NCBI GenBank assembly: GCA_016861085.1
Contig: BOKR01000001.1
Span: 1,098,040 to 1,162,039, forward strand
Direction of reading: 5' to 3'
Source: Patescibacteria group bacterium
Lineage (GTDB): Bacteria > Patescibacteriota > Microgenomatia > UBA1400 > PJMF01
Length of the DNA stretch: 64,000 nucleotides
Part shown: piece after piece, positions 33,581 through 52,160 of the stretch
How positions within the stretch are numbered: the stretch's first letter is position 1
How the letters are laid out: each line of letters opens with the position of its first letter
Position numbers and translations under genes: made by a program
Notes under the pieces: generated by a model
What the model saw: the letters and a program-made list of their open reading frames with translations, nothing else
What the model was told of the DNA's origin: nothing
Databases searched by the model: none

Positions 33581-33581
33581 T

Positions 33582-36969: not shown

Positions 36970-37122
36970 CGATAAATCAACATATTTTGTTTATTGTTTT
37001 TGATAAGATTTTTTGATATTTTCAAGAAGACATATGGTTGTCGTGTGTATCCGAGGAAGGGTACGCCAGGTAAGAGATTTCACTTTTGGAAGGCCTGCGG
37101 GTAGAAGCGGAGCTGCAGGTAC

Positions 37123-37150
37123 TTGATATATGTCTCATTCGCTGTATACT
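37123..37150 (+). promoter_or_regulatory. Candidate rplY promoter (TTGATA-N16-TATACT) embedded in an 11/12-matched inverted repeat (37119-37130 / 37145-37156)
   Basis: gtacttgatata ... tatactaagtac. The two arms carry the -35-like and -10-like hexamers. Confidence 0.35.
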
Positions 37151-37214
37151 AAGTACGGTAGTAATTCTAGTGGGAAAAACACAAATTTTTTCCTAAGAAA
37201 GTAATACATACTAT

Positions 37215-37904
37215 ATGATAAGTTCTTCAGAGAAGGTTCTTTTTCACGTCTTTTCACGCGACGTAGCAGGCACAAGTTCTGCAAAGAAACTCAGAAAACA
37301 AGGAAAAGTAGTCGGGAACGTATATGGTCTGGGATCAGACTCTGTAGGCGTTTACATGGATAAAAATGCTATTAAAAAGCTTTATGCAGCACATGGTGAC
37401 ACTGGTTTAATTTACCTTCAAATCGGTGAATCAAAACAACAGGTGCCAGTCTTGATTTCAGATTATATGACCGATCCTTTTGGTGAAAATGTACTTAATG
37501 TAGCTTTTAGAAGGGTAGACCTTTCTGATCCAATTAAGGCGGAAGTATCAGTCTATATGGTTGGTGAAGCAAATATTCCAGAAGCTGTTGTTTCACTGGT
37601 TAAAGATAGTGTCGAAGTCGAGGCATTACCAGCCGATCTTCCAGATAAATTTGAGATTGATATATCAAGTCTTACTGAAATTGGCCAAACAATTAGTTTA
37701 GCAGACTTAGTCTATGATAAGAGCAAGGTAACATTAGTCCTTGAAGAAGATGAAAAACCAGAGGAAATCTTATTGGTCATTGTTCAAGAGATTGCTGGCG
37801 AAGTCGCCGAAGAGGAAACTCCAGAAACAGTTGTTGAAGGTGAGGTTTCTCAAGAAGAAGGGACTGCGGAAACAGCAGCTCCAGAAGAGAAAAAAACAGA
37901 ATAA
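37215..37904 (+). CDS. rplY: 50S ribosomal protein L25 / general stress protein Ctc, with an acidic C-terminal tail
   Basis: AKKLRKQGKVVGNVYG...VLISDYMTDPFGENVLNVAFRRVDLSDPIKAEV matches the L25/Ctc beta-barrel domain. Confidence 0.85.
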   Translation: MISSSEKVLFHVFSRDVAGTSSAKKLRKQGKVVGNVYGLGSDSVGVYMDKNAIKKLYAAHGDTGLIYLQIGESKQQVPVLISDYMTDPFGENVLNVAFRRVDLSDPIKAEVSVYMVGEANIPEAVVSLVKDSVEVEALPADLPDKFEIDISSLTEIGQTISLADLVYDKSKVTLVLEEDEKPEEILLVIVQEIAGEVAEEETPETVVEGEVSQEEGTAETAAPEEKKTE

Positions 37905-37929
37905 TTTTTTATTTGAAATAAATTAAAAA

Positions 37930-37956
37930 CCCCCGATTTTTATCGGGGGCTTTTTT
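37930..37956. terminator. Bidirectional Rho-independent terminator between rplY and the convergent minus-strand gene
   Basis: aaaaaCCCCCGATttttATCGGGGGcTTTTTT. Confidence 0.85.
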
Positions 37957-37977
37957 GTCTGATTCATTTACTATTTT

Positions 37978-38397
37978 TTATTCAAAAATTGGATTGTTTG
38001 GATCGATTATTCTAGCTGTATTTTTATATTCTTCAGCTTTTTGTGTTTCACCTAGGGCAGCATAGAGTAGAGAAAGGTTTAATAAAATATCTCTGGAATG
38101 GGGCTGAATAGCAAGTACCTTCTCAAGAGAGTTGATCTCTAATGCGATTTGTTCTTTAGTCATTCTTTTAGCAACAAACAAATCGACATTTTTAGGAATA
38201 ACTGCAGAGGCAGAAACAACCTCGACGGGTTTTTGTGTAGTGTTTAAAAGCGAAATTCCACCAATAAACAAAACTAACCCAATAATAAAAAAGGCTAAAA
38301 TAGCGGGCTTTGTTTTATTAGAAAAATTGGCAGTTAATTTTAAAATAAAAACGAATAAATGAAGTGCAAGTCGTAGTTTAAACAGTAGAAATTTCAT
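37978..38397 (-). CDS. Membrane-anchored TPR-like repeat protein, function unknown
   Basis: N-terminal TM (AILAFFIIGLVLFIGGISLL) plus a helical-repeat C-terminus. Overlaps the valS 3' end by 20 nt. Confidence 0.4.
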   Translation of the reverse strand: MKFLLFKLRLALHLFVFILKLTANFSNKTKPAILAFFIIGLVLFIGGISLLNTTQKPVEVVSASAVIPKNVDLFVAKRMTKEQIALEINSLEKVLAIQPHSRDILLNLSLLYAALGETQKAEEYKNTARIIDPNNPIFE

Positions 38398-40687
38398 AGG
38401 GCCAGTTTGCGGTAATAAGCAATTTTTCTTTTGTGATATTAAGTATACTGAATTCTTGCCAAATTGCTTCCGTTATAAATGGCATAAAGGGATGTAGCAA
38501 CTTGAGGAAAATGAGCATGCCTTGAAGCAGTGCTTTTCTTGAAATATGTCCTGACTTGCTTGCTTCAATACATTCATCACAATACCAATGCCAAAATTCA
38601 GTATATACAGTATCAGCTGCCAGACCAATTTTAAAGTCATTGAGCTGTTTTGTCACAGTTTGGACTACTTCTTTTAGTTTTTTTTCAAATGCTTCATCTT
38701 GTGGCGCATCTTTTTCAGCACTTCCTTCAGAAGGCTTTTCTGTCTGCAACATGACAAAGCGTGCAGCGTTCCAAACTTTGTTTGTGAGATTTCGCGCTGC
38801 TTTAAAATCAGGCAATCCAACAGATTTGTCTTGTCCTGGTGTAGAGCGGATGACTAAAGCCATTCTTAAGGCGTCGGCTCCATATTCTTCTTTGACTGAC
38901 AATGGGTTAATGACATTGCCTTTTGATTTAGACATTTTTTGACCCTTTTGGTCACGAACCAGTCCATGTAAGTAGACGTCAGAAAATGGCGTTTTTTGGG
39001 TCATGTAAATGCCTAGAAGCATCATGCGCATTACCCAGAAAGGAAGAATGTCATATCCGGTTTCCATAACAGAGGTAGGGTAGAAGCGATCGAAGTCTCC
39101 TGGTTTTGCATTTTTGAGTGTGACAACTGGCCACTGACTCGAAGAAAACCAAGTGTCAAAGGTATCAGTTTCTTGTAGATATTGGTCATTTGATGGTTTT
39201 GAAAGAGAAACGACATAAGGTACGGAAATGTCGGCGTTCATTGATTGCAGATTTTGTTCAATTTCCTCGAGAGAATATGTTTGTAGCGCCTCAGAGAGTA
39301 GGGCAGAGGTGTATTTTTTTTCTTTGTCTAAGAAGTTAACAGTAATTTTGTTTTCGTATCCGGAGATTTGGTACCAAACTGGAATACCAATTCCCCATAC
39401 AATTTGGCGTGAAATGTTCCAATCCTTGAGGTTATTGAGCCAATGACGCAGGATTTTTTCACGGCCAGCGCCATGAATTTTTGTAGCACCAGAATCAAGG
39501 GCTTGTAGTGCATTTTGAACTAAATTATTTTTTTCATGATTCACACTGATAAAAAATTGAGGCAATGGTAATGGTTCAATCTGGCGGCCACAGCGATAGC
39601 AAATGCCGACTGAGTGTGAGTATTTTTCGTTTGTGTTGAGTAGAAGGGCTCCTCCCTTGTAGGTTTTATATGCTTCAAGGGCGGCTTTTCGAGCATTCAC
39701 AATACCAAGACCGACGTATTCTTTTGGTATAAGTATGTTGTTTTGATCTGCGTTGTAGAGTTTTCCAGAAGTGTTAATCACGGGTTGTGGTACTTCAGAG
39801 ATTTCATTTTTATGGTTTGTCCACATCATAAAATCGTTTGGATCATGATATGGGGTCACTTTCACAGCTCCAGTGCCAAATTCAGGATCAACATATTCGT
39901 CGGCGATAACGGGCATTTTTTTGGTACCCCACGGGAATTCTACCTCTATTTGAGTGCCAATATACTGTTTATATCGTTTATCGTTTGGATTAACTGCGAC
40001 GGCTACATCGCCAAAAATTGTTTCTAAACGTACAGTTGCAACGGTAAGTGGGCCATATTGAATTGTGTGTAAAGGATCGACTTGGTCTTTGTGATCTACC
40101 TCAAGTTCAGAGTAACTTGTTCCGCATTTAAGACAATAGTTGACCAATTTAAAATCACGATACACCAAACCATCTTTATAAAGGGTTTCAAAAGTTTGTA
40201 ACACATTTGAAACGATATCTTTGTCGAGAGTAAATTTAAATCGAGACCAGTCTGCACTAGCACCAAGTTTTTTGATTTGATCAACCGCTACACCAGAGTT
40301 TTCTTGTACGTAATCCCAAATCATTTGAAAGAGGGTAGAACGGTCAAAATTAAATCGAGATTGGTCTTTGGCGGCCAATTTTTTTTCAAAGACAAATTGT
40401 GTTTCGATACCGGCATGATCAGTACCAGGTATCCAAATGGTGTCATTGCCTAGCATACGGTTATAGCGAATTAGTACGTCCTCAAGAGAAACAAACATAG
40501 CATGACCAACATGGAGAGGATCATTTGCATTTGGTGGTGGCATGACGATAGAAAATGGTTTATTTGTGACAGGATTATTTTCTTTTTTGCGAAGTTCCAA
40601 AACAGCGTCGGGGTTAAAAGCATCAGCTTTTTCCCACAAGTCATACATTTTTTCTTCTGTTTGTTGGTGTAAATATCTTGGTTCCAT
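38378..40687 (-). CDS. valS: Valyl-tRNA synthetase (compact, 769 aa; no C-terminal coiled-coil)
   Basis: PPPNANDPLHVGHAMF (HIGH motif), IPGTDHAGIETQ and KMSKSKGN (KMSKS motif). Editing-domain segments are present. Confidence 0.85.
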   Translation of the reverse strand: MEPRYLHQQTEEKMYDLWEKADAFNPDAVLELRKKENNPVTNKPFSIVMPPPNANDPLHVGHAMFVSLEDVLIRYNRMLGNDTIWIPGTDHAGIETQFVFEKKLAAKDQSRFNFDRSTLFQMIWDYVQENSGVAVDQIKKLGASADWSRFKFTLDKDIVSNVLQTFETLYKDGLVYRDFKLVNYCLKCGTSYSELEVDHKDQVDPLHTIQYGPLTVATVRLETIFGDVAVAVNPNDKRYKQYIGTQIEVEFPWGTKKMPVIADEYVDPEFGTGAVKVTPYHDPNDFMMWTNHKNEISEVPQPVINTSGKLYNADQNNILIPKEYVGLGIVNARKAALEAYKTYKGGALLLNTNEKYSHSVGICYRCGRQIEPLPLPQFFISVNHEKNNLVQNALQALDSGATKIHGAGREKILRHWLNNLKDWNISRQIVWGIGIPVWYQISGYENKITVNFLDKEKKYTSALLSEALQTYSLEEIEQNLQSMNADISVPYVVSLSKPSNDQYLQETDTFDTWFSSSQWPVVTLKNAKPGDFDRFYPTSVMETGYDILPFWVMRMMLLGIYMTQKTPFSDVYLHGLVRDQKGQKMSKSKGNVINPLSVKEEYGADALRMALVIRSTPGQDKSVGLPDFKAARNLTNKVWNAARFVMLQTEKPSEGSAEKDAPQDEAFEKKLKEVVQTVTKQLNDFKIGLAADTVYTEFWHWYCDECIEASKSGHISRKALLQGMLIFLKLLHPFMPFITEAIWQEFSILNITKEKLLITANWPYEISTV

Positions 40688-40753
40688 GGTTTCTTAATTA
40701 TAACATCTCGAGGTGGTTTTGGATGAGTTATTTTTGATTAAGACCTATAGTAC

Positions 40754-40781
40754 TTGACTTTAACAACCTATAAAATATAAT
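40754..40781 (+). promoter_or_regulatory. sigma70-like promoter A (TTGACT-N16-TATAAT) driving the long leader of membrane-protein paralog A
   Basis: ttgactttaacaacctataaaatataat. The same consensus promoter precedes cassette B. Confidence 0.55.
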
Positions 40782-40860
40782 ATGCTGGCAATAAAAATCC
40801 ATAGGAAATGGGAAACCGTTTTTTATTCTTTCTTATTGTATGGTAAAGAATTACTAAAAA

Positions 40861-40918
40861 CCCCAATTTGCTTGGGGTAGTTTTGGTAGATCTTTGCACT
40901 TTAACATCCTAGTTATTT
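40861..40918 (+). repeat. Conserved leader element, copy A (hairpin CCCCAA-tttgc-TTGGGG + TCTTTGCaCTTTAACATCCTAGTTATTT)
   Basis: ~80% identical to 43269..43326 with a compensatory G-U change in the stem. Lies ~80 nt downstream of promoter A. Confidence 0.6.
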
Positions 40919-41066
40919 TTAATTTTTAGAGTTTAGTCCTATATAGTGAGCTCTGTTAAGTTGTTGATTTGATGAACAATTTGAGAGAGCTCATTATTTT
41001 AAAAACAGAGCTAAAAGGCCAATGATGGCTTGTCACTGGGAGGCTTTGCTTCCCGAAAACTAAATT

Positions 41067-41087
41067 AGCCGAAGGGCTTAAACTCAA
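41067..41087 (+). repeat. Conserved motif 2, copy A: AGCCGAAGGGCTTAAACTCAA (5-bp stem, GAAG loop)
   Basis: Matches 43703..43724 (AGCCGGAGGGCTTTAAACTCAA). Confidence 0.5.
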
Positions 41088-41241
41088 GAACAAAAATAAA
41101 TTGAAAAAATTCCAAAAAAATAAAAAATTCGGAAAAAAGTTTGAACGGCGTCTCAATAGGCGCGCACCACCGGCCTCGAAGAGGTCATGGCGCAACTCTG
41201 CGCCGATCATCTCTGGAGCGAATAAAAACGCTCGCAGATAG

Positions 41242-42900
41242 GTGACAAAGATGAAAATTTCAGTTCAAGATTTTGGTAAGAAACTGACAGAAATTGTTAC
41301 GTTTCTAAGTGACGAAAAGGGAAACCCCGAGTGGTATTTCCCCGGTCATGCTCGCACCATCAAGTCTCGTTTAACAAGTAATTGGCTGTCAAAGAAGGAA
41401 TCCATTGCGGATACGCTGGATAATCTTGCTTTAGCCATTACGACAAAGTATCCAGAAAAGCACCAGCAACTTGGTCTTACGGCCATGAATAACTCAAACT
41501 CTTTGCGGAGGAGTGCGCGAATTTTGCGTACATTGACTGAAGAAGGGGTTGAGCTGACTGGATTGGACGAGCAGTATTGGCGCGATGTTGAATTGCCTGT
41601 TGAAGTCATCAAAATGGATTTCGTTGCGATTTCCAAAGGTACGTTTGCTGTGACTGATGGTGATTTTTACCGCCAAAAAGAGCAGGCAAAGAAGGAAGAA
41701 GAGTCTAAAAAAGAAGAAGCCAAGCAGGCCAAGCGCGACCGTCGAAAAAATCGTTCCCAAGAACCCCCAAAATCTGAAGGCGCTCCTGTTGCTGAGGGTT
41801 CTACCAGTGGCGAAGCCCAAACCCAAGCTCAGGCCTTTCTGCAGAAAATCAATCTGCGGGCGATCCTGATTGTGGTTGCTTTGTTGATTGGTTTATGGAT
41901 TGCATGGGGCCTTTGGCAGAATAATGGTGACAGCATTATGACTTTCTTCAACAGCACAGGAAATAGTGGTGTCGAAACCACAAACCAGGGGACAAGTGAA
42001 ACTGAAACCACTGGAGGTGAAAACAACGCTGACAGCGGTTCTGGTGTTCCAGGAGAAAACTACAGTGTCATTCCAGACGGCCAACTTTCCGACAAAATGG
42101 TCGCGGCCAAGTTCCTGTTCCTTAAAGTCCAGGGGATGTTGGAAATGCCCGTTACGATTGCCGTGGCATTCCTCATTGCTTTTGTGTTCTACAAGATCTT
42201 TTTAGATCGGACACATGGTGGTGATCCCGGCGATTTTGGCCTGGTGGTTGGTGGGATGCTTGTCTTTGCTTTCCTGGTTTGGCTCCCGATTGGGGAATAT
42301 TTCTTCCCTGGTCAGGGTTTGGTTACGAAGGACGGTGAGCTCATCACTATCAGGGCTATTCAAAACTTTGTGTGCCTGATTGCTTTGGGGGTTTACCTCC
42401 TGGCTGTAGCCATTAACGGGGTGGGTGATTTGACCCCACTGTCCGGCGGCTTCTTCATCGCAGGGTTTGTTTTCTGGTTTGGCCAGCCCGATATGTACCT
42501 TAACTGGGTACCTCCCCAAATTACTTTCGCCTGCTGGGCGATTGGGGCGGGCCTTCATGCGCTAGAACTGTTCCGTCAAGGGACAGTTTTGACTACGATC
42601 ATTTTCGTGATTGTGGGTGGCATCGCGCAGGTACTGATTTTTCTTGGCCTGGCACGCGTTTTTGGTGCAACCGACATGCCAGTCGTCCTGAAATATGCCC
42701 AACTGATGGCTTTTGTTATCTCCCAGAGCGCTGTAGTTGGTGTGGTGGGTTTCCTGCTTTCCGCGGTTGGTAAAAACAAAGTGATCCCGATTAACGGGGT
42801 CATGGTCGGGAAGTTTTTCCAGGCTGTTGACAGTGTGGCGCACGACGCTGCGATTGCCCTCTGTTTCTGGGGGGCTATCTTCTTGGCCTTGTTCTGGTAA
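41242..42900 (+). CDS. Paralog A: ~150-aa cytoplasmic N-domain, K/E-rich linker, polytopic (6 or more TM) C-domain; function unknown. The likely true start is the ATG at 41251.
   Basis: EWYFPGHARTIKSRL...LGLTAMNNSNSLRRSARILRTL...GLDEQYWRDVELPVEVIKMDF aligns with paralog B. The codon usage is GC-rich and unlike flanking genes. Confidence 0.55.
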   Translation: MTKMKISVQDFGKKLTEIVTFLSDEKGNPEWYFPGHARTIKSRLTSNWLSKKESIADTLDNLALAITTKYPEKHQQLGLTAMNNSNSLRRSARILRTLTEEGVELTGLDEQYWRDVELPVEVIKMDFVAISKGTFAVTDGDFYRQKEQAKKEEESKKEEAKQAKRDRRKNRSQEPPKSEGAPVAEGSTSGEAQTQAQAFLQKINLRAILIVVALLIGLWIAWGLWQNNGDSIMTFFNSTGNSGVETTNQGTSETETTGGENNADSGSGVPGENYSVIPDGQLSDKMVAAKFLFLKVQGMLEMPVTIAVAFLIAFVFYKIFLDRTHGGDPGDFGLVVGGMLVFAFLVWLPIGEYFFPGQGLVTKDGELITIRAIQNFVCLIALGVYLLAVAINGVGDLTPLSGGFFIAGFVFWFGQPDMYLNWVPPQITFACWAIGAGLHALELFRQGTVLTTIIFVIVGGIAQVLIFLGLARVFGATDMPVVLKYAQLMAFVISQSAVVGVVGFLLSAVGKNKVIPINGVMVGKFFQAVDSVAHDAAIALCFWGAIFLALFW

Positions 42901-43015
42901 ACCAATCCGAGGAGTCTGGTGGCTTAAAGGTGAAACCAAAAAATAAATAAAAAAAGAATGGCTCCAAGTGAGCCAATATACTAAAAATAAACAAAAAAAT
43001 ATAACTAGGATGACG

Positions 43016-43055
43016 GCCGTGAGCGGGGAGGACAATAATATACCCCGCTCACGGC
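43016..43055 (+). terminator. GC-rich 13-bp stem-loop after paralog A (no U-tract); probable terminator or structured 3' end
   Basis: GCCGTGAGCGGGG-aggacaataatata-CCCCGCTCACGGC. Confidence 0.45.
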
Positions 43056-43129
43056 GCGAATCACAAGAATTTTAACTGATTTATTAGAATTTTTCTGATT
43101 TGTAAATAATTTAAACCTCTTGTTATTAA

Positions 43130-43157
43130 CTTGACTTTTCAGACCTATAACATATAA
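43130..43157 (+). promoter_or_regulatory. sigma70-like promoter B (TTGACT-N16-TATAAT) for cassette B
   Basis: ttgacttttcagacctataacatataat. The hexamers and spacing are near-identical to promoter A. Confidence 0.55.
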
Positions 43158-43268
43158 TACAAGAACTATGAAAGAGCATCATAAGAGTGCATCTGTTAAC
43201 TCTTCACTAAGAGGAGGGTACGGTGCGCTTTTTTTGTTTGAGTAATAGATGATAAAGATATATGGAAC

Positions 43269-43326
43269 ACTCCAATTAGCTTGGGGTAATTCTAGCGTAT
43301 CTTTGCTCTTTAACATCCTAGTTATT
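43269..43326 (+). repeat. Conserved leader element, copy B
   Basis: ctccaattagcttggggtaattctagcgtatctttgctctttaacatcctagttattt. Lies ~110 nt downstream of promoter B. Confidence 0.6.
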
Positions 43327-43702
43327 TATTGTTAAGTAACTTTTATAGATATTTAGATACTTTGAAAAGCGATTTTCATGTATTCCCTTGAGTTTTAGCC
43401 AAGTAGTAGGCTCTGGTAAGTTGTCTTGTTTCTTTTTAGGGACATGGCGATTTACTTGAGCCTGCTATCAACTCACGCTAAACCTGTTTTAAATAACAGA
43501 ATCTGTTGTGCTACCCTGTGTTGTGAAAACGATGCTTTGAGGTGCCCAGATTTGGTAAAGTGTGAGTTTACTTTAGGCTCTCTTTATTAAGATGCCCATT
43601 GAAAAGTGGGCTTAATTACGAACTGCCCGGTCAACGGGCGCTTATGGCCTGTTGGCCGTTTATTGTGATGGGGTTTTTAAAAATGCCCCGAGTAAATCTA
43701 AA

Positions 43703-43724
43703 AGCCGGAGGGCTTTAAACTCAA
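43703..43724 (+). repeat. Conserved motif 2, copy B, immediately upstream of the RBS/ATG at 43734
   Basis: AGCCGGAGGGCTTTAAACTCAA, followed by aaGGTGGataATG. Confidence 0.5.
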
Positions 43725-43733
43725 AGGTGGATA

Positions 43734-44090
43734 ATGAAAGCGAATGTTAGTGCTCCCGATACTTCGTCTGCTGAAACAGGGGGAAACTCTGTTCAGCGTG
43801 ACCTTATTTTATTGGTTATCTTTTACGCGATTGGCGTTGCGATTCAGGTATTTGGAAAGCTCCCCATCGGGATCTTTTTCAACTTGATCATCGCGGCTGA
43901 AATCGCGGCAATCCCGACCCGGATGTTGTTTGCTCCTAAGGTCAATCAAATGACCGCTAATAGCAAAAAGCACCTCGGCGAGGAAGCCCACGAAGTGGGC
44001 AAGGGGATTGCTTTCCTGTTTTTCTCGATTCTGGTTGGTATTCCGGCGTTTGGGTTGCTTTGCATCCCCTACATCCTGTTGTTAGTATAG
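43734..44090 (+). CDS. Small polytopic membrane protein (118 aa)
   Basis: Three or more hydrophobic helices. Sits in the GC-rich island and is preceded by motif 2 and an RBS. Confidence 0.45.
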   Translation: MKANVSAPDTSSAETGGNSVQRDLILLVIFYAIGVAIQVFGKLPIGIFFNLIIAAEIAAIPTRMLFAPKVNQMTANSKKHLGEEAHEVGKGIAFLFFSILVGIPAFGLLCIPYILLLV

Positions 44091-44116
44091 TCGGCCGGTG
44101 GCCGAAAACTTAGAGG

Positions 44117-44818
44117 GTGAATAAAATGATGCGTTTAATGGATAAACTGTTCGAGCGCCCTTTGTTGGCACTACTTGTTCTTGCTCTATTAATCGGTTTT
44201 TCTGTGTTGCCCGACATAATTGGTGGGCCACCGCAACCCATGGGCACAGACTATGTTGGTCTGGTCCGCGAGTTTGACGGCAAAACCTATTATTGTAATC
44301 AGGTGACCAACACAAACCATTGTAGTGAGTGGGAGGACGTGGCAGACAGTGCGACAGATGTTGCCGATGCCTTTGGCCCCGGAATGTTGGGGGTCGCCAA
44401 AGGGGAAGCGCCGTTGCTTCCCACCGATTTGTGGTATTCTGCATTCCTGAACCCGATCAACACGACCGTTTTCAGCCTTAGCATGGAAACCGGGATACCC
44501 GTGTTTGCCATTTTGCTAGGTAGTGTGTTGCTTTTTTGGTTTTTGACCCTCAGGGCGTTGAAGCCAAAGAGTGTTGGTGTGGTGTTGGCGGTCACCGTTT
44601 TACCGGGATATGTGGCATTCATGTCGGCCGCCACGTTGAGTGGTGGCATGGCCCTAGTTACTATCGTCCACCTTTGTGGTGTGCCATTGCTATTGCTAAT
44701 TGTTGTTCTTAAGCTTTTTGCAGGGATTAACATTAGCACTGGTTCTCGGCGATCCGCTGATGGGGAATTTGAAACTTATACTGTGATTGGAAAAGGCGGA
44801 GGTCTCCGCCGTAAATAG
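44117..44818 (+). CDS. Membrane protein (233 aa): N-terminal TM, Cys-containing extracytoplasmic segment, C-terminal TM bundle
   Basis: Long ORF with GC-rich codon usage. Hydrophobic segments are LLALLVLALLIGF and IPVFAILLGSVLLFWFL. Confidence 0.45.
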   Translation: MNKMMRLMDKLFERPLLALLVLALLIGFSVLPDIIGGPPQPMGTDYVGLVREFDGKTYYCNQVTNTNHCSEWEDVADSATDVADAFGPGMLGVAKGEAPLLPTDLWYSAFLNPINTTVFSLSMETGIPVFAILLGSVLLFWFLTLRALKPKSVGVVLAVTVLPGYVAFMSAATLSGGMALVTIVHLCGVPLLLLIVVLKLFAGINISTGSRRSADGEFETYTVIGKGGGLRRK

Positions 44819-44871
44819 TTTTTTGAGGGGCGGCTTGAATAAGGTCGCCCCCAAAAAGGGGTGAAATTACC

Positions 44872-46509
44872 ATGAAAATCACGAGCAAAACCTTAAGGGA
44901 AAAATTGGTTAAGCTCTGTAACGAACTTAATCAAGAAACAGGGGAGTACCAAGATTGGTACTTCCCGGAAGAATCAAAGTCAATTCGAGAACATCTGCCT
45001 CCTGGTGGCTGGCTGAAGCAAAAAGCCAAGCTGATGAAAGGCCTGGAGGCCGTGGCGAACGCTATGACTTCAAAATACGGCAAAGGCCATGAGTTAGGCC
45101 TGGCGGCAATCAGTAACTCTAATATGGTTCGTCGTCTTGCTCATATCTTAGACCAGTTTACTGGCGAAGATATGGAGATTGGCGGCCTTGATGAGCTATA
45201 CTGGAAAGAAGCCGATATCGCAATAGAAGTCATAGAAATGGACTTTGCCAGGATCAAGAAAAAGGTCTTCGCATCCACAGAAGGTGAACTCTACCGTCTT
45301 GAAAAGGCAGATGCTGATGCAAAGGCCAAAGCAGAGAAGGAAAAGCAAGAAGCAAAGAAGAGTAAAGGTAAGAAAAAGAAGGAGAAGAAAAATGAAAGTT
45401 CTCCTCCTGAAGCTCCTGCCCCAGAAGCTGAAAATGCTGAATCCGAACCTGCACAAGAACAAACGGCCGCACCGGCCGGTAAGAAATTCGGCTTACCCAA
45501 TGTGAACTTTTCAATGAAGAAAGTGGTTGGGGTCGTAGCTGTTTTAGTTGCCCTCTATCTGATTCTGGGTACAGGTTTGCTTGGTACCATCACTGGCATG
45601 ATTAGCGGTGATGGCGCCAGTCAACCGCTGGTGTACAATCAGGTAGATCCGAATGCAACTTCGCCAGGTTACACTGTTAACCCAGATGGGACAATCACGT
45701 TGAACCCCACTGATAACAGCTCCAACCCTGCCGTACAGATAACGCCATCGGCCCAAAACTTGCAAACGAAAGTTCAAAACTTACTTGCCCTTTTAAAAGA
45801 AGGGAGGTTGGTGGCGATGATTCTCCTGAGTTTGGGCGGCCTGGTTTTAATAATGTTTGATCGTGCGGCCGACTTCGAAGTAGAGGATTTCTACGTTTCT
45901 CTGGCAATATTGGCGGCATACCTTGTCATGGTACTCCTGACAGATGGTACTGTGACTTTGGCCGGGAAGCAAATAGAAATGGACCTGCTCTTAACTATCC
46001 TGATGGCTGGGGCGCTCTTTGTGGTTGCCTGGCTGGGCAACCGCGACTTCACTGTCGTTTCTGTTGGGATGTTTCTAGCTGGGAACATCCTATTCGTCAC
46101 GAACATTACAGCTTTTGCGGCGTTCCAGCCACCACCGGTTGCCCTGCAAGCCTGGGCCATAGGTGGAGCAGTTCAATTAATGGAGATGATCCGCCAGGAA
46201 AATACGGGTAAGACGATTCTGATTGGGGCAGTTGGGATTGTTGTTCAGGCAGTCCTGTTTTTCGTGATTCTGGGCAAGCTTTCCACAGCGACAGACCCGT
46301 TTGTTGTGAGCCATGTGCAGGTGATCAGTTACACGTCAGCGATCATTCTCACGTTCATCGGCATCGTTGGCTTCATGTTTGCTGGCCTAAAAACGGATGT
46401 GTTCAAAAACATCAACGGCATCCAAAATACAATTAACACGGCGATGTTCGACGTCGCTGTGGTTGCGAACTGTTTTGGGGCGTTATGGCTTATGCTCTAC
46501 ATTTGGTAA
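44872..46509 (+). CDS. Paralog B of the 41242..42900 protein (N-domain + K/E/A-rich linker + polytopic C-domain)
   Basis: DWYFPEESKSIREHL...LGLAAISNSNMVRRLAHILDQF...GLDELYWKEADIAIEVIEMDF. The RBS GGGGTGA precedes the ATG. Confidence 0.55.
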   Translation: MKITSKTLREKLVKLCNELNQETGEYQDWYFPEESKSIREHLPPGGWLKQKAKLMKGLEAVANAMTSKYGKGHELGLAAISNSNMVRRLAHILDQFTGEDMEIGGLDELYWKEADIAIEVIEMDFARIKKKVFASTEGELYRLEKADADAKAKAEKEKQEAKKSKGKKKKEKKNESSPPEAPAPEAENAESEPAQEQTAAPAGKKFGLPNVNFSMKKVVGVVAVLVALYLILGTGLLGTITGMISGDGASQPLVYNQVDPNATSPGYTVNPDGTITLNPTDNSSNPAVQITPSAQNLQTKVQNLLALLKEGRLVAMILLSLGGLVLIMFDRAADFEVEDFYVSLAILAAYLVMVLLTDGTVTLAGKQIEMDLLLTILMAGALFVVAWLGNRDFTVVSVGMFLAGNILFVTNITAFAAFQPPPVALQAWAIGGAVQLMEMIRQENTGKTILIGAVGIVVQAVLFFVILGKLSTATDPFVVSHVQVISYTSAIILTFIGIVGFMFAGLKTDVFKNINGIQNTINTAMFDVAVVANCFGALWLMLYIW

Positions 46510-46531
46510 GTATCTATGAATTAAACAAAAC

Positions 46532-46624
46532 GCTCCCACTAGGGAGCCCTTAACAATTCGCCCGAGAGGGCGATACATAATAACTAGGATTCACATGCCG
46601 CAGGCGTAACCCGCCTGCGGCATG
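46532..46624. terminator. Three consecutive GC-rich hairpins between convergent genes (6-bp GCTCCC/GGGAGC; CGCCC-gaga-GGGCG; 13-bp CATGCCGCAGGCG-taacc-CGCCTGCGGCATG)
   Basis: Perfect inverted repeats. No U-tract follows. Likely a bidirectional terminator or REP-like structure. Confidence 0.5.
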
Positions 46625-46627
46625 AAT

Positions 46628-48457
46628 CTATATTCCCACCATATATTTCGCAGACCACGGTCTGTAATTAGAATAATATGTGTCGTTGTGGATAATATTT
46701 CCGTTTTTATCTTTTACCGTGTGGGTAAACTCAGTTTTAATTCCCCCAACCGCCCAATCAATTTGTTTTTTGACCCCAGTTGGTAGTTCAGTGGTTGGAT
46801 AATACTCTGTTGGCAGTGGCCCAGTAGCTCCCCATTTTTTATAGTCATGAATTTCCGCGACGCGCCCATCATCAGTTCCATAAATTTCTACATTCATATA
46901 CAGCTCATCTGAATCATTGTTGTATACCAAAATAATGTGATTTGGGGTGTCATTTATAAATCTAAAATCGATATCTCCAGAATAGACTGTCGCATCAAAG
47001 CCAGGGTCAGAATTGAGTTCATAATATGAAACTCGGTACGCATGTTGTAACCGTTTGGTTATATCTAGTCCAGCATCTAGAGCTGCTCTAAAAGTAGTAC
47101 TACTCACTTGGCAAACCCCACCACCATCACCAAGCACGGTTTTCCCACCAGAAATCACATACGCTGGTCTATATCCAGTAGCAGCAGAAACATCTCCTAA
47201 AATTTTATTAAATGAAAACTCTTTTCCAGGAGGCACAATTGTCATGTTCATTTTTTTAGCAGTAATTCCTACATTGTGTATGCGATTTGGAATTGAGTGA
47301 TAGTAGTAACTTTCTCCAAACCCAATACGTTCATTGATGCCTAGATCATTTGTTTGGGCAAGGGTGATTTCTGGCTGTGTACGGTTGAGTGGAACCTCAA
47401 GCATTTGGGGTGTATCAGTAAACTGAGTACCCGATGAGGTAATTCCTTTTATGCTTGTCTCAGTTTCTATGTTTTCAACCCAATCCATGATTTGTGTTAC
47501 ACTGGCATTTTGATCAAGCTCAAGCCCGTCTTTGTGTGGGGTAAATTCATCTACTCGTAATGTGTTTGAGTCATATTTAAAGACTGCATTTTGAGCAGGG
47601 CGATTCACCTCTTCAGAAATTTCAGCCACAAACTCTTTTATTACTTCATCAAAATAATTTCCCAGAGGATTCAAAAACGAAACAAAATCTTGGTCGGATA
47701 AATAGAATTTTTTGTCTTCAGCCGCTAGTGTGACCTTTTTTCCTACGAATATTCTTGCTCTTGCTATTGTTGCGTCAATTGCTTCTTGAGACAGTACGCT
47801 ACTGGTTGAAGCAATTTCAGCAGTGACTGCATGTTTATTTTCTTGAATCGCATCTAGAATTTTTTGTGAGGTTTGTTGTGAATTGAGTGTTCGGCCGGGT
47901 TTTCCTGGAAATACAATAATTGATTTTTCAGAACCACTGACTTTTTGTTCAACACTTGGGTTTTTTCCAACGAGTTCAACTTTTTGATTAAATTGTGCTA
48001 AAAATTCCGCAAGTTTCGTTTCGTCATATTTTTTGGGAGCAACATATTCGTTTTTTTGGATATATGCAGTGAGAGCAGAAAATGCAGTAATAATTGGATT
48101 ATTTTTATGCTGATCAGTGTAGACTTCATCTATAGCTTGAGTAAAATCAGTCGTATAGCCAAGCTGTGCAGAACTACTTGCTAAAGAAATATTATCAACG
48201 CTCAATACAAATTCATGCGAATCAAGTTCTTGCCTGTGGCTTTCCAGAACAGCGATACCTTCTGACAGCTCAAGCCCAGAAACGTCTATACTATTTATAT
48301 AGGTATTTGCAAATATTCTATTGCGATATGAATTTCCGAGCAAAAAGATCCCGGTAACCAAAAAACTGATCCCAGCAACTGAACACAAAAAGATGAATTG
48401 CTGAGTGGTTACTTGCGTTTTGATTTGTGTTATCATTTGTACAGAGTATTTTGTCAA
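46628..48457 (-). CDS. VanW-family protein with an N-terminal membrane anchor. The start is probably the internal Met (48436), because the annotated start overlaps the divergent gene.
   Basis: PPGKEFSFNKILG...GGGVCQVSSTTFRAALDAGL...H matches the VanW domain signature (PG..FSFN...GGGvCQ.SsT). Confidence 0.75.
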   Translation of the reverse strand: MTKYSVQMITQIKTQVTTQQFIFLCSVAGISFLVTGIFLLGNSYRNRIFANTYINSIDVSGLELSEGIAVLESHRQELDSHEFVLSVDNISLASSSAQLGYTTDFTQAIDEVYTDQHKNNPIITAFSALTAYIQKNEYVAPKKYDETKLAEFLAQFNQKVELVGKNPSVEQKVSGSEKSIIVFPGKPGRTLNSQQTSQKILDAIQENKHAVTAEIASTSSVLSQEAIDATIARARIFVGKKVTLAAEDKKFYLSDQDFVSFLNPLGNYFDEVIKEFVAEISEEVNRPAQNAVFKYDSNTLRVDEFTPHKDGLELDQNASVTQIMDWVENIETETSIKGITSSGTQFTDTPQMLEVPLNRTQPEITLAQTNDLGINERIGFGESYYYHSIPNRIHNVGITAKKMNMTIVPPGKEFSFNKILGDVSAATGYRPAYVISGGKTVLGDGGGVCQVSSTTFRAALDAGLDITKRLQHAYRVSYYELNSDPGFDATVYSGDIDFRFINDTPNHIILVYNNDSDELYMNVEIYGTDDGRVAEIHDYKKWGATGPLPTEYYPTTELPTGVKKQIDWAVGGIKTEFTHTVKDKNGNIIHNDTYYSNYRPWSAKYMVGI

Positions 48458-48464
48458 AAAAACT

Positions 48465-50423
48465 ATGAATTCGCCACTGCCAAAGCCAACGCCACCAACA
48501 AATACTGATGATAAGCAGCAAACTGTGGTTTTTGACCAAAAAGTGCCGTTGCAACAAAAGGCGGCTACTCCAGGTGCACCCGCATCTCAATCTCCAACGC
48601 CAGCCCCAACTATGCCGTCTCCAACACCTCCTAAACCAGCAGTTGCACCATCAGCGGGAAATCAAACCGAACCAAAAGATATACCAACTACTCCTCCTCC
48701 TTCAACTTTAAAACCCACATTACCTCCAACTTCTTTGAGTGCACTCTCTTCAATGAGCAGTAACAAAATTCCTGATGGAAAAAGTGCCCCTGTAGTGCAA
48801 CCAGCAACGCCAATGCCTCAAAAAACAGTTTTGGGGCAACCGATTCCGCAAGCAATTCGTGGTGAAGCAACTCCTGTAGGTATGGGTAAGTCAGCCCCAG
48901 GAATGACACCACCTCGTGGAATAACACCTGCAGGAATTGCGGCAACTGGTGCTGCTGCTACCACAACTACAACAACGCAAACAGCAATCAAACAAGAATC
49001 ACCCAGTATTGGTGGTTCAAAAAACGCACCTGCCGGTAACGCTCCCAAGTTCGCCGAAACCAAAAGCCCAATTATGAGGTTTCTTCCCTTTATCGCTGGT
49101 GGAATTATTTTATTAGTAGTAATCGTTTTTGCTTTATCCAGATTTCTAGGGGGTTCATCTACTTCGGTTTCTGATAACCAAGGGACAACGCCGACGGCTC
49201 CAACAACAGGTGGATCCCAAAGAACAGAAGTTCCTGCCCAAAGGGTAACCTTAGAATATTGGGGATTATGGGAACCAACAGAGGTTATGGAGCAAGTGAT
49301 CACCTCATTTGAAAGCGAAAATCCAGGAATTGAAGTGAATTATGTTAAGCAATCTCCGATAGACTATCGAGAACGACTGCAAACTGCTATTCAAAGTGGC
49401 TCTGGTCCAGATTTATTCAGATTTCATGCTTCTTGGGGTCCAATGTTAAAAACGCAGCTAGATCCAATACCGGCAAGTGTTGCAACTGCAGCTGAATTTA
49501 GAGAAAATTACTATCCAATAGTTACAGAACAATTGGTAAATGCTGGCCAATATGTTGGTTTGCCACTGATGTACGATGGACTGGTACTATATTATAACGA
49601 AGATATTTTAGCTACTGCTGGGGAGACACCGCCAAAAACTTGGCCAGAACTGAGAAGAGTAGCAAAAAAAATAACAGTTCTTTCTGCAAATAAAATTCAA
49701 CGAGGTGGTCTAGCAATTGGAAATGCTACAAATGTAGAACATTTTTCTGATATTTTAGCTACACTTATTTTGCAGAACGATGGTAATCTATCAGAGGCAG
49801 ACTCAGTTGAAACTAGAGATGCATTGTTATTCTATACAAACTTTCAGTTAGAGGATAAAGTTTGGGATGAAACACTGCCAAGTTCTACGGTTGCATTTGC
49901 TCGAGGTGATGTAGCGATGATGTTTGCTCCTTCCTGGAGGGCTCATGAAATAAAAGCGTTAAATCCAAACTTAAAGTTTGCAACAGCCCCAATGCCGCAA
50001 CTTTCTGATGATACAAAAATTGCATGGGCGAGTTATTGGGCAGAAGGAATTTCATCTGCAAGTAAAAAGAAGACAGATGCCGCAAAGTTCTTGGCATATA
50101 TTAATAGAACTGATGTCCTTAAGAAATTTTTCTCAGATGCGAGTAAGGTTCGTGCGTTTGGTGAAATCTATCCTAAAGTTGATATGGCTGAAGAACTTTC
50201 TGAAGATAAAATTATCGGACCAATCTTGGAAGATGCTCCAATCGCAAAAAGTGGTTACCTGAACTCTTTCACACATGACAATGGTATTAATGATCAAATG
50301 ATTACGTATTACAAAGCAGCTATAGATGCATTACTCAAGAGCGGTGATATTGAAGAAATTCAAGAGACTTTGAGTGCTGGAGTTGCCCAAGTTTTAAAAC
50401 AATACAGTGTTAGTACAAAATAA
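48465..50423 (+). CDS. Membrane-anchored extracellular solute-binding protein (ABC transporter SBP family 1-like) with a Pro/Thr-rich N-terminal region. Start taken at the internal ATG 48465 (ORF track: 48405).
   Basis: A single TM IMRFLPFIAGGIILLVVIVFAL is followed by a LEYWGLW...DLFRFHASWGPML...GLPLMYDGLVLYYN sugar-SBP-like fold. Confidence 0.55.
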   Translation: MNSPLPKPTPPTNTDDKQQTVVFDQKVPLQQKAATPGAPASQSPTPAPTMPSPTPPKPAVAPSAGNQTEPKDIPTTPPPSTLKPTLPPTSLSALSSMSSNKIPDGKSAPVVQPATPMPQKTVLGQPIPQAIRGEATPVGMGKSAPGMTPPRGITPAGIAATGAAATTTTTTQTAIKQESPSIGGSKNAPAGNAPKFAETKSPIMRFLPFIAGGIILLVVIVFALSRFLGGSSTSVSDNQGTTPTAPTTGGSQRTEVPAQRVTLEYWGLWEPTEVMEQVITSFESENPGIEVNYVKQSPIDYRERLQTAIQSGSGPDLFRFHASWGPMLKTQLDPIPASVATAAEFRENYYPIVTEQLVNAGQYVGLPLMYDGLVLYYNEDILATAGETPPKTWPELRRVAKKITVLSANKIQRGGLAIGNATNVEHFSDILATLILQNDGNLSEADSVETRDALLFYTNFQLEDKVWDETLPSSTVAFARGDVAMMFAPSWRAHEIKALNPNLKFATAPMPQLSDDTKIAWASYWAEGISSASKKKTDAAKFLAYINRTDVLKKFFSDASKVRAFGEIYPKVDMAEELSEDKIIGPILEDAPIAKSGYLNSFTHDNGINDQMITYYKAAIDALLKSGDIEEIQETLSAGVAQVLKQYSVSTK

Positions 50424-50436
50424 ATCTGCCCTATAA

Positions 50437-51342
50437 ATGGAGTGCATGCAATTATTTGTAGCCCGTAGGATTTTGTTGACGCTTGCGTATAGTGAGCAGT
50501 TTCAGTTTCCTTTAAAAGCGTCAGAACTATTTACCCGATTACTTACAAAAATTTCTGTAACTGTTGATGAGTTTGTAGCTGCACTTACTTTTTTAGTAGA
50601 TAAGCAGTTAATTTCATACGATTCAGGTTACTTTGTCATATCTGGTTTGAGTGGCAGTGATATAAAAAAATTAGTTGATACTCGAGTAGAAAGAGCTGAA
50701 TATGCGAGCAAAAAATGGAGTGAAGTTTTAGATTTTATTTCAGTTATCCGCAGTATCCCATTTATTACAGGAGTTGCAGTAACTGGCTCACTTGCGGTGC
50801 ACAATACGATAAAAGACGATGACATTGATTTTATGATAGTAACGCCAAAAAATAGATTGTGGCTTGCCCGACTGTTGGTCGTTTTGTATGCAAGCTTGAG
50901 AGGAAAGCGGCGATCATTTGCAAAAGAAGAAAAAAATAGTTGGTGTTTTAACTTATGGATTGAAGAAAGTGATTTGCAGTTACCAGTTGGTGCTCGATCA
51001 GTGTATGAAGCATATGAAGTCATTCAGGCAACCTGGGTATTAAGTAGAGGAGGAGTGGCAAACAGATTTAGACGACTCAATGACTGGACTAAAAAAATTG
51101 TTCCAAGAGCTAGAAAATTTTGTGATGTCATAGAACAAAAATCTACGACTGTTTTTGATCTTCCCGTTATTTCTCAGATGTTAGATGTTTGTAATCAGAC
51201 CGCTTACTATTTTCAATTTCAGTATATGAAATCACATATGACCAGAGAAAAAGTTAGTAAAAGTCACGCTTTTTTTCACCCTCGTGATACGAAATCAGAA
51301 GTATTTAAGAATTGGAAAAAAACGATACTAAGGCTACTATAG
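50437..51342 (+). CDS. Nucleotidyltransferase-fold protein (Pol-beta-like NTase motif GS...DIDFMIV), function unknown
   Basis: GVAVTGSLAVHNTIKDDDIDFMIVTP resembles the minimal NTase hG[GS]...D.D motif. Confidence 0.3.
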   Translation: MECMQLFVARRILLTLAYSEQFQFPLKASELFTRLLTKISVTVDEFVAALTFLVDKQLISYDSGYFVISGLSGSDIKKLVDTRVERAEYASKKWSEVLDFISVIRSIPFITGVAVTGSLAVHNTIKDDDIDFMIVTPKNRLWLARLLVVLYASLRGKRRSFAKEEKNSWCFNLWIEESDLQLPVGARSVYEAYEVIQATWVLSRGGVANRFRRLNDWTKKIVPRARKFCDVIEQKSTTVFDLPVISQMLDVCNQTAYYFQFQYMKSHMTREKVSKSHAFFHPRDTKSEVFKNWKKTILRLL

Positions 51343-51767
51343 AGAATATGCAACAAGGCAAAAAAGTATTAGTAACAGGAGTTTTTGATGTTTTACATGA
51401 AGAACACCGTAATTTTTTAAAGAAGGCAAAAAGTTTGGGTGAGTATCTAGTTGTTGGAATTGAGTCTGACGTTCGAGTTCGACAAATAAAAGGTGAGGGT
51501 AGGCCGGTTAATACTGAGCAACTCAGAAAGAAAAATGTAGAGGCATTAGCTATCGCTGACGAGGTTTTTATTTTGCCAGAGCAGTTTAGTAAACCAGAAG
51601 ATCACAGTACACTAATTCAAAAAATTCGACCGGATTATTTAGCAGTTTCATCGCATACAAAGCACCTAGATAAAAAGCAAGCAATTTTAGAGCAGTTTGG
51701 AGGAGAGGTTGTTGTGGTGCATGAATACAATCCAAAAATTTCTACCACAAAGCTACTGCAAAAATGA
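51312..51767 (+). CDS. Cytidylyltransferase-like nucleotidyltransferase (HxGH class; RfaE-domain-II / TagD-like). Likely start at 51351.
   Basis: KVLVTGVFDVLHEEH matches the G.FD..H.GH motif. ~140-aa Rossmann-like fold. Confidence 0.55.
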   Translation: MEKNDTKATIENMQQGKKVLVTGVFDVLHEEHRNFLKKAKSLGEYLVVGIESDVRVRQIKGEGRPVNTEQLRKKNVEALAIADEVFILPEQFSKPEDHSTLIQKIRPDYLAVSSHTKHLDKKQAILEQFGGEVVVVHEYNPKISTTKLLQK

Positions 51768-51779
51768 TACGATTATCGT

Positions 51780-52100
51780 ATGCATAAAAAGATTTTATTT
51801 TCTCTGTTAGTTATTACTGTTTCAGCAGGACTTTTTTCTGCTTGCTCCCATGCAAAAAACGCGAATGACACAATGCTTAATGAAGAGTATGAACAAAAAA
51901 ATGCAGTTATCACTGTAACTGGAACACTTTCAAAAAATGGTGAATTGTTTTTCGTAACAGATGCCGCGGGAACCATTCATGATGTGGAAACATATGCTGT
52001 TGCTTTTGATGAGTATGTCGGTCAAACGGTTACTGTATCTGGTCAGTACAGTGGAAACACGCTGTTTGTAACCGAAATATCAAGTGGCTCCTCATATTAG
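51780..52100 (+). CDS. Small lipoprotein (lipobox LFSAC), function unknown
   Basis: MHKKILFSLLVITVSAGLFSAC signal with a Cys lipobox. Confidence 0.45.
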   Translation: MHKKILFSLLVITVSAGLFSACSHAKNANDTMLNEEYEQKNAVITVTGTLSKNGELFFVTDAAGTIHDVETYAVAFDEYVGQTVTVSGQYSGNTLFVTEISSGSSY

Positions 52101-52160
52101 TAGGTATTCCTACAGTTTTTGTCAGAGTTGTGTGGTTTAATTGGTTTGTAAGGAGAGTGT

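Follow-up and report, generated by a model that had tools for sequence, protein, structure and literature searches.

This report concerns a group of membrane-protein genes of anomalous base composition in a 64,000-nucleotide stretch of DNA from a Patescibacteria group bacterium (GenBank assembly GCA_016861085.1, contig BOKR01000001.1, positions 1,098,040 to 1,162,039 of the forward strand). The whole stretch is referred to as the window, and coordinates are counted from its first letter. Between the genes for a valyl-tRNA synthetase (ValRS) and a VanW protein lie two tandem units, of which unit 1 carries a single gene of a large (L) type, gene A, and unit 2 carries a cassette of three genes, S, M, and the L-type gene B. 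Comparison with relatives identifies this as a replacement-type hypervariable locus and not a one-off import.

Organization and composition of the two units

The genes and control elements of the two units and their flanks are listed here, with ORF standing for open reading frame and UTR for untranslated region.

38378–40687, minus strand: ValRS, the conserved left flank
40754–40781, plus strand: promoter 1 (TTGACT-N16-TATAAT, predicted), 11 of 12 consensus positions
40788–41250, plus strand: leader 1, abridged (RNAfold z = −9.5)
41101–41241, plus strand: very basic 46-aa ORF (MKKFQKNKKFGKKFERRLNRR...), sitting where S starts relative to the leader hairpin P5
41251–42900, plus strand: gene A, L-type, 549 aa (552 aa for the ORF from GTG 41242)
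43016–43055, plus strand: terminator-like perfect GC hairpin of unit 1, 13 bp, no U-run (3′ UTR z = −7.2)
43131–43158, plus strand: promoter 2 (TTGACT-N16-TATAAT, predicted), 11 of 12 consensus positions
43165–43733, plus strand: leader 2, full (RNAfold z = −10.6)
43734–44090, plus strand: S, small polytopic membrane protein of 118 aa, with orthologues at the same position in all relatives
44126–44818, plus strand: M, ~230 aa (ORF from GTG 44117; gene calls in contig L027)
44872–46509, plus strand: gene B, L-type, 545 aa, in the full cassette
46594–46624, plus strand: terminator-like perfect GC hairpin, 13 bp, no U-run, between the convergent genes B and VanW
46628–48457, minus strand: VanW / PG_binding_4 protein, the conserved right flank, followed by a solute-binding protein (SBP) on the plus strand

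The two predicted promoters are the best two sites in the 11 kb scanned and lie inside a 31-nt repeat that is 84% identical between the units. Scanned across the window, a 30-nt promoter pattern hit these two sites, while 0 of 100 shuffles gave a match. A preliminary description of this DNA, made from the letters alone, had reported the duplicated promoter, GC-rich perfect hairpins lacking a U-tract, and two extra small membrane ORFs in the second unit, and all of these are borne out at the positions listed above, the small ORFs being the genuine genes S and M. It had also given the two large proteins as paralogues of 552 and 545 aa. The paralogy holds over the full length (32–35% identity), as does the length of B, while A more likely measures 549 aa: its most likely start is ATG 41251, giving the database protein P0001. 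For M, ATG 44126 is the most likely start.

Unit 1 is a complete frame, consisting of its promoter, the abridged leader, gene A, a small hairpin (42959–42975), a 3′ box described below, and the terminator hairpin, and no S or M gene or pseudogene remnant was found between leader 1 and gene A. With the frame complete, a whole unit must have been duplicated, or a second one captured, and it now encloses a different L allele; a recent duplication of the gene alone does not explain it. The 46-aa ORF at 41101–41241 has its stop codon within the Shine-Dalgarno sequence of gene A, and it lacks its own Shine-Dalgarno sequence, a homologue, and a Pfam match. Its status as a gene is uncertain, and it might be either a coupling upstream ORF or noise.

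The GC content averages ~37% over the window and reaches 45–50% across 41–47 kb, with 0.508 in the richest 500-nt interval of the region. Genes A, S, M, and B (the island) were compared with the remaining 42 ORFs in the window that reach 120 aa or more. Total GC is 0.477–0.494 in the island genes versus 0.376±0.028 in the others, and GC at third codon positions (GC3) is 0.518–0.568 versus 0.264±0.042, at least 6 standard deviations apart. First and second codon positions (GC1 and GC2) are near background, the strong shift being confined to GC3. The AGA codon accounts for 0% of arginine codons in the island and for 50% in the rest, and the island/rest shares of CTG (0.27/0.07), CCG (0.24/0.07), GGC (0.30/0.14), and GCC (0.29/0.14) agree with the codon preference given in the preliminary description. 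Usage is therefore not uniform when computed, and the compositional anomaly reported there is real in GC3 and codons. The range of 50–58% GC does not stand, as the genes individually have 47.7–49.4% and only their GC3 falls at 52–57%. The leaders are AT-rich, as had been stated (GC 0.33–0.35).

A second GC bump (0.476) at 48.5–49.0 kb corresponds to the low-complexity N-terminal region of the SBP, which is rich in proline, threonine, and alanine (48405–49100, plus strand), and not to foreign DNA. The SBP ORF start at 48405 overlaps VanW, and gene calls on independent contigs place the start near 48465 (652 aa).

Replacement of the membrane-protein cassette between strains

Loci bearing the same slot were compared from relatives designated L005, L007, L011, L015, and L016–L019, together with a distant locus from a genome of 49% GC (L020). 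The order ValRS (minus strand), S-M-L, VanW (minus strand), and SBP (plus strand) recurs in every slot-bearing locus, where the proteins measure 111–122 aa (S), 242–259 aa (M), and 505–577 aa (L), and a noncoding stretch of 590–780 nt lies upstream of the cassette in every close relative. Presence in related strains, a point that the preliminary description had left to comparison, is thus established by cassettes in the matching slot. Since the slot is filled in every close relative, the locus is ancestral to the clade and not a private insertion. It is situated ~10 kb from dnaN-rnpA-yidC.

Evidence for replacement comes from L007, L011, and L015, which are essentially one species: their ValRS proteins are 96%, their VanW proteins 98–99%, and their SBPs 99% identical. 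The cassettes of the same three strains share only 27–38% identity in L and 26–35% in M. For S, identity is 29–30%, but the L007/L015 pair reaches 86%. At the nucleotide level, flanks 94–100% identical enclose cassettes that have been replaced wholesale. A blastn comparison of L007 with L011 aligned ValRS at 94% and the leader at 90% until 15 nt into S, detected nothing from there to 54 nt past the L stop codon, and then continued at 98%; homology between sibling strains resumes exactly at the 3′ box. L007 and L015 have the leader and S in common and diverge exactly at the S/M junction, so the modules recombine independently. Identity in the right flank rises from 93–96% beside the cassette to 99.5–100% about 500 nt away, and that of the left flank is 86–92% within ~1.2 kb of the cassette. 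Allele and flank relationships conflict: M and L of L011 are nearer to the types of the window and L005 than to those of its sibling L007.

The GC3 of the cassette exceeds that of the flanks in every relative, by +0.08 to +0.27.

L005: cassette GC3 0.50–0.53; flank GC3 ~0.26
L007: cassette GC3 0.36–0.41; flank GC3 0.16–0.27
L015: cassette GC3 0.37–0.41; flank GC3 0.16–0.22
L011: cassette GC3 0.28–0.35; flank GC3 0.25
L016: cassette GC3 0.25–0.31; flank GC3 0.15
L020 (distant, 49% GC): cassette GC3 0.64; flank GC3 0.37–0.45

The bias holds even in the 49%-GC genome. It is a property of the cassette pool or of the locus and does not testify to one recent import.

Replacement flexible genomic islands are exchanged by homologous recombination and display a raised substitution density at their boundaries (Lopez-Perez, Martin-Cuadrado and Rodriguez-Valera 2014, PMC4033161). 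The present locus likewise has a fixed position between core genes, very different content in near-identical strains, and a pile-up of substitutions at its boundaries. As in the O-antigen and other cell-envelope clusters of this kind (PMC4033161), a fixed slot holds a divergent version in each strain, with sharp boundaries and atypical composition. The differences are several. Only three genes and ~2.8 kb are involved here; the alleles are homologous to each other, unlike the different gene sets of replacement flexible islands; and the cassette is enclosed by a structured leader, itself conserved, and a 3′ element complementary to it. O-antigen clusters typically have a lower GC content than their host and encode glycosylation enzymes, whereas this cassette has a higher GC content and encodes uncharacterized membrane proteins.

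Other kinds of variable or mobile element were considered. No tRNA gene and no flanking direct repeats were found in the window, no integrase-like ORF was found at 38–49 kb, and the neighboring genes are housekeeping genes. A classical mobile genomic island or integrative element, which would call for an integrase, a tRNA/att target, or flanking direct repeats, does not fit. An integron gene cassette does not fit either, given that each unit has its own promoter, that there is no intI, and that the 3′ hairpins are perfect GC stems unlike the imperfect repeats of attC. A diversity-generating retroelement was dropped, as there is no reverse transcriptase at the locus and the divergence spans whole proteins.

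Two of the relatives' public metagenome-assembled genomes, represented by L005/L022 (CAZDWQ010000009.1) and L007/L021 (CAZUHV010000003.1), are labeled "uncultured Pseudomonadales bacterium". This label looks wrong, as gene content and a GC content of ~35–40% match the Patescibacteria window.

The L-type proteins have a common architecture of a ~140-aa helical N-domain lacking a signal peptide (predicted to be cytoplasmic in A), a K/E-rich linker, one transmembrane helix, a low-complexity outer segment of 55–70 aa rich in S, T, P, N, and Q, and a polytopic C-domain of ~8 helices. All nine L-type sequences agree at nine invariant residues (D339, F340, L356, D392, G399, G404, F463, D527, and W545 in B numbering). 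In M, an N-terminal transmembrane helix is followed by an outer domain of ~90 aa, which contains two invariant Cys residues, and by a hydrophobic C-terminal region that we read as ~3 transmembrane helices. S, M, and L are all predicted integral membrane proteins with outer segments. A and B can be aligned end to end, while BLASTP aligns only the N-terminal ~143 aa (41%, 5e-32). The two form a domain mosaic, with N-domains 39% and C-domains 21% identical; the C-domain of A is more like those of L015 (32%) and L007 (28%), and that of B more like those of L016 (44%) and L005 (35%). With this mosaicism and an identity of 35%, as between alleles of different species, A and B are not recent in situ duplicates.

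When 1.84 billion representative proteins were searched exhaustively by HMMER with an A+B profile, only six other L-type representatives (P0003–P0008) came up, so that the L family amounts to eight 50%-identity representatives in that collection. A homologue search by word index yielded nothing beyond the query itself or P0006, the K/E-rich linker having probably swamped the candidates. No match to any of A, S, M, and B was found in Pfam, NCBIfam, PHROGs, or PADLOC, profiles of the N-domain, the C-domain, and M had no matches among PDB sequences, fold searches including BFVD gave no match, and viral contigs searched with two L subgroup alignments yielded no related loci. The S alleles of L007 and L015 have sub-threshold Pfam matches to EI24/CysZ (E ~5e-4, 20 bits versus a cutoff of 32); the other S alleles have none. 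At L020 (JGI Ga0256681_11880169), the most distant L-type gene (P0008) adjoins a dihydroorotate dehydrogenase gene in the 49%-GC genome, and this locus has no S or M genes, no recognizable leader motif, and no 5′/3′ boxes. An L protein can accordingly exist outside the cassette frame.

The preliminary description had listed transporter and VirB6-like channel functions among the possibilities, for which the family, PDB-sequence, and fold searches gave no support. The L-type proteins resemble VirB6/TrbL in being polytopic membrane proteins of similar size with a VirD4/TraG-like ATPase 7 kb away, but they lack a Pfam, NCBIfam, or fold match, and the ATPase has no link to the cassette, being a component of the conserved flank in every relative. 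This coupling ATPase (TrwB_AAD_bind, DUF87, TraG-D_C) is encoded at 53563–55746 on the minus strand. It lies at an equal distance from the cassette in L005 and L007, in a core flank with RadA, Rho, an M23/LysM peptidase, and Obg.

The structured leader and its complementary 3′ element

The elements of the two leaders and the boxes with complementarity to the 3′ UTRs are as follows.

~40842–40898, plus strand: P2 of leader 1 (inner hairpin 40860–40878)
40906–40916, plus strand: Box 1 of unit 1 (ATCCTAGTTAT), complementary to 43001–43011
40946–40994, plus strand: P3 of leader 1
41067–41078, plus strand: P5 of leader 1 (AGCCGAAGGGCT)
43001–43011, plus strand: Box 1′ of unit 1 (ATAACTAGGAT), between the small hairpin at 42959–42975 and the terminator hairpin
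43184–43235, plus strand: P1 of unit 2, a promoter-proximal, terminator-like nested hairpin with U7 at 43229–43235 (−25.8 kcal/mol, z = −3.7)
~43245–43310, plus strand: P2 of leader 2
43315–43325, plus strand: Box 1 of unit 2 (ATCCTAGTTAT), complementary to 46580–46590
43345–43350, plus strand: Box 2 of unit 2 (ATAGAT), complementary to 46512–46517
43403–43468, plus strand: P3 of leader 2
43499–43553, plus strand: P4 of leader 2
43703–43714, plus strand: P5 of leader 2
43724–43730, plus strand: Shine-Dalgarno sequence
46512–46517, plus strand: Box 2′ (ATCTAT), directly 3′ of the B stop codon
46580–46590, plus strand: Box 1′ of unit 2 (ATAACTAGGAT), complementary to Box 1

The preliminary description had noted conserved leader elements in both units. 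These consist of a 102-nt block (40817–40918 / 43226–43327) that is 75% identical and of shorter elements, a 56-nt motif also being held in common. An alignment of seven distinct leaders from the clade, which are 450–650 nt long, resolves the following structure. P1 lies directly after the predicted transcription start and is followed by U6–7, with folding energies of −24 to −27 kcal/mol; it is kept in L007, L011, L015, and L016, with one compensatory pair. P2 is a long hairpin, after which comes a near-invariant single-stranded core, UUUAAC-AUCC(U/A)A(G/A)UUAU. P3 is a 24-bp helix with an apical insert of 0–100 nt, and P5 is an AGCC-GAAG-GGCU hairpin that abuts the Shine-Dalgarno sequence. 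Leader 1 retains P2, the core motif, P3, and P5, has other sequence in place of P1 and P4, and lacks Box 2. In the 3′ half (P3–P5, 46 pairs), 95.9% of the alignment cells are paired versus 29–49% in slid controls, and compensatory changes affect 12 of the 46 pairs, compared with 5.7±1.6 in shuffles, none of 500 shuffles reaching 12. The corresponding values for the 5′ half (P1–P2) are 94.6% paired versus 37–57%, with four compensatory pairs.

Rfam 15 gave no gathering-level match in the region, the best hits (E ~1–9) being to unrelated eukaryotic families only. A conserved upstream ORF was sought in the leaders and none was found. Scanning GTDB genomes for the leader motif retrieved only two already-known contigs, and scanning JGI metagenomes retrieved one known contig and three chance matches in eukaryotic DNA (L023–L025). 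Elsewhere in the window, an adenosylcobalamin (AdoCbl, B12) riboswitch was recognized at 16679–16837 on the plus strand (Rfam RF01482, 51.4 bits versus a gathering score of 50), directly upstream of and slightly overlapping a 712-aa ORF (16827–18965).

Conserved leaders that recruit processive antitermination are known from variable surface-polysaccharide and exchanged operons, among them JUMPStart/ops with RfaH, EAR RNA, and the LoaP leaders. The present leader resembles these as a long conserved untranslated sequence in front of an atypical, strain-variable operon and also as an upstream anchor for recombination. It differs from them in having no match to ops, JUMPStart, EAR, or any other Rfam family and in its structure, which includes a predicted promoter-proximal terminator.

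The leader core recurs in inverted form in the 3′ UTR of every unit, flanked by the small hairpin on one side and the terminator hairpin on the other. Box 1 and Box 1′ form a perfect 11-bp match in 7 of 7 units and covary at two positions (A-U to U-A in the window/L005 clade and G-C to A-U in L016), with 95.6% of cells pairing versus 25–47% in slid controls; no other complementary match of leader and 3′ UTR is longer in six of the seven units. Both sides of the Box 2 pair occur in 6 of 6 full units, the 3′ side within the part of the 3′ UTR that varies, and neither side occurs in unit 1. The per-unit chance of such a pair in shuffles is 0.012–0.063, with a product of 1.5e-9. The order of the boxes fits an antiparallel duplex. 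In L011 (3629–3642 and 6980–6993), the second box extends to 14 nt (TGATCATAGATTAT), which is the longest leader/3′ UTR match of that locus.

We read the boxes as a candidate long-range 5′UTR–3′UTR interaction in the cassette mRNA. Pairing between 5′ and 3′ UTRs is known in bacterial mRNAs from Staphylococcus aureus icaR (PMC3868564) and Bacillus subtilis hbs (PMC5737220). In these examples, as here, a short 3′ UTR element beside the terminator hairpin is complementary to the 5′ UTR of its own message; at the cassette locus, this complementarity is conserved across homologues. The partner in icaR and hbs is located on the Shine-Dalgarno sequence; here it lies ~420 nt upstream of it, so that masking of the icaR type is unlikely. 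The partners in the cassette are, moreover, 2.1–3.5 kb apart, and their bipartite interaction is proposed from covariation only.

Short-read assemblies tend to end in this part of the locus. Contig ends fall at 43158 (L001, L002), 43215 (L027, L029), and 43244 (L003), and the assemblies of four runs stop on either side of 43159–43214, a stretch of 56 nt that makes up the 5′ half of P1 in leader 2 and that only L003 crosses. These breaks suggest strain microdiversity or an alternative sequence there. In the closest relative, the NCBI contig (L005, non-aligning part 1–92) and the Logan contig (L006) both start ~70–90 nt upstream of the leader core with a stretch that does not align to P1. This break may indicate a repeated leader, and hence a second unit, in that genome too.

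Interpretation and alternative explanations

We regard it as probable that the segment comprises two tandem, lineage-specific expression sockets and that the S-M-L coding part is exchanged between strains by homologous recombination. Each socket would consist, in order, of a strong σ70-like promoter, a long structured 5′ leader, a membrane-protein payload, a leader-complementary 3′ UTR element, and a GC-rich hairpin terminator. Within a narrow clade of Patescibacteria, one socket would be fixed between ValRS and VanW, holding S (~115 aa), M (~240 aa), and L (~540 aa), with exchange proceeding wholesale or module by module from anchors in the conserved leader and the 3′ flank. The codon usage of all alleles is alike in being GC3-rich and unlike that of the host genome. 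The window genome would possess an extra, upstream socket with an abridged leader and only the divergent L-type gene A. The promoter-proximal P1 hairpin and its U-run may serve as a conditional terminator that gates transcription, and read-through transcripts could fold P2–P5 and close on their own 3′ UTR, with consequences for stability, processing, or translation. The S, M, and L proteins would form a membrane or envelope complex, whose diversity might be kept by frequency-dependent selection, for example through phage pressure or partner-cell recognition. As for the GC3 excess, it could stem from an allele pool circulating through higher-GC relatives or from GC-biased gene conversion at a recombination hot spot.

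Several points weigh against this interpretation. The cassette proteins match no family, fold, or defense system, and the AlphaFold2 model is of only moderate quality (mean predicted local distance difference test score, pLDDT, of 69). Variation extends beyond the predicted outer segments to the cytoplasmic N-domain (14–49% identity), which a simple "surface antigen" picture does not predict. With only seven distinct leaders, three of them from close relatives, the covariation reflects few independent events. The promoter, the role of P1 as a terminator, and the transcript ends are all predictions.

Among the competing explanations, fusion of a contaminant contig into a low-GC genome would account for the jumps in composition at 41.2 and 46.5 kb and for the breaks of short-read assemblies within the leaders. 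Logan assemblies from other runs, however, reproduce 31251–43158, 39998–43158, 40932–43244, 43215–52509, and 44046–52509, among others, at 99.99–100% identity; these independent assemblies span ValRS–leader 1–A, A–leader 2, and B–VanW–SBP, and the identical arrangement is found in other species. Continuity at both island edges, which the preliminary description had singled out for checking, is thereby confirmed with no sign of a chimera, and we give an assembly artefact virtually no credence. The origin favored in that description, in which this genome or a recent ancestor took the island once from a higher-GC donor, with tandem duplication and divergence to follow, fits the strong GC3 and codon anomaly with its sharp edges, the promoter, leader, and 3′ architecture common to both units, and the occurrence of the L family in higher-GC Patescibacteria (L020, 49% GC). 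It is contradicted by the filled slot and the same bias in all close relatives, by the domain-mosaic relationship of A and B at 35% identity, by the exchange of unrelated-looking alleles between sibling strains, and by the lack of an integrase, tRNA gene, or flanking direct repeats in the region. Synteny would allow it only at the base of the clade, where it becomes part of the favored explanation; as stated, we judge it very unlikely. A local origin of the GC3 excess, through GC-biased gene conversion or selection for GC-ending codons that are rare in the host, is possible, though less likely than not. Only GC3 is strongly shifted, the excess appears in every genome whatever its background GC, including that of L020, and the locus demonstrably recombines. 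Yet alleles in one genomic background differ (0.36–0.41 in L007, 0.28–0.35 in L011), as would fit differing residence times after import, and flanks inside the recombination tracts are not GC-enriched.

The payload might alternatively be a conflict module, such as a phage-exclusion system or a polymorphic membrane toxin with its immunity protein, and not a structural envelope complex. We consider this somewhat unlikely: while the extreme diversity, even in cytoplasmic domains, the hot-spot-like replacement, and the apparently tight gating of expression by the predicted promoter-proximal terminator would all suit such a module, PADLOC and PHROG searches gave no match, no toxin or nuclease domains were found, and the three-protein architecture and invariant residues are kept in all alleles. 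Another alternative concerns the boxes. Were Box 1 and Box 1′ the inverted repeats of a recombinase, the cassette would be invertible DNA, and flipping would uncouple S-M-L or A from the promoter. An inverted repeat of 11–13 bp does bracket each unit, its arms change in concert, the promoter lies outside the bracket, and several samples have assembly breaks concentrated in the leader region; in addition, the 11-bp Box 1 core has Watson-Crick changes only, and an inverted repeat acting at the DNA level would look alike, a further point against reading the boxes as RNA pairing. The short inverted repeats around a segment encoding a variable protein recall Hin/Gin/Cin and the R64 shufflon, but those systems differ from the locus, which has no recombinase gene in or beside it in any relative, a single orientation in ~20 independent contigs, and variation by allele replacement. 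Nor do the contig breaks (43158, 43215) fall at the repeats, and the second box pair with its structured spacer, as well as one G-U pair that lengthens the helix, fits RNA pairing better. Inversion is, in our estimate, improbable.

A bolder form of the socket interpretation would see the frame of promoter, gated structured leader, bipartite 5′/3′ complementarity, and terminator as a dedicated, undescribed cassette-presentation system of Patescibacteria, in which any S-M-L allele brought in by recombination depends for its expression on an RNA closed upon itself across 2–3.5 kb, or in which the boxes guide exchange or inversion of the DNA. The payload would then be a new three-protein envelope machine that sets strain-specific interaction with phages or host cells. 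We regard this extended version as speculative and unlikely. The replacement-type locus as such is of a known kind; the protein family, the leader RNA, and the 5′/3′ bracket are new.

Few Patescibacteria have been cultured, and many of them live attached to other cells. To our knowledge, what determines their strain-level specificity toward hosts and phages is largely unknown. The locus represents a compact, sharply bounded case of extreme allelic replacement in the envelope proteome of these bacteria. With it come a candidate new structured leader RNA and long-range 5′UTR–3′UTR complementarity in a bacterial operon, a rare instance with support from covariation. Finally, it illustrates that the GC-rich signature of a "foreign island" can be a stable, lineage-wide trait of a recombination hot spot and not evidence of recent import.

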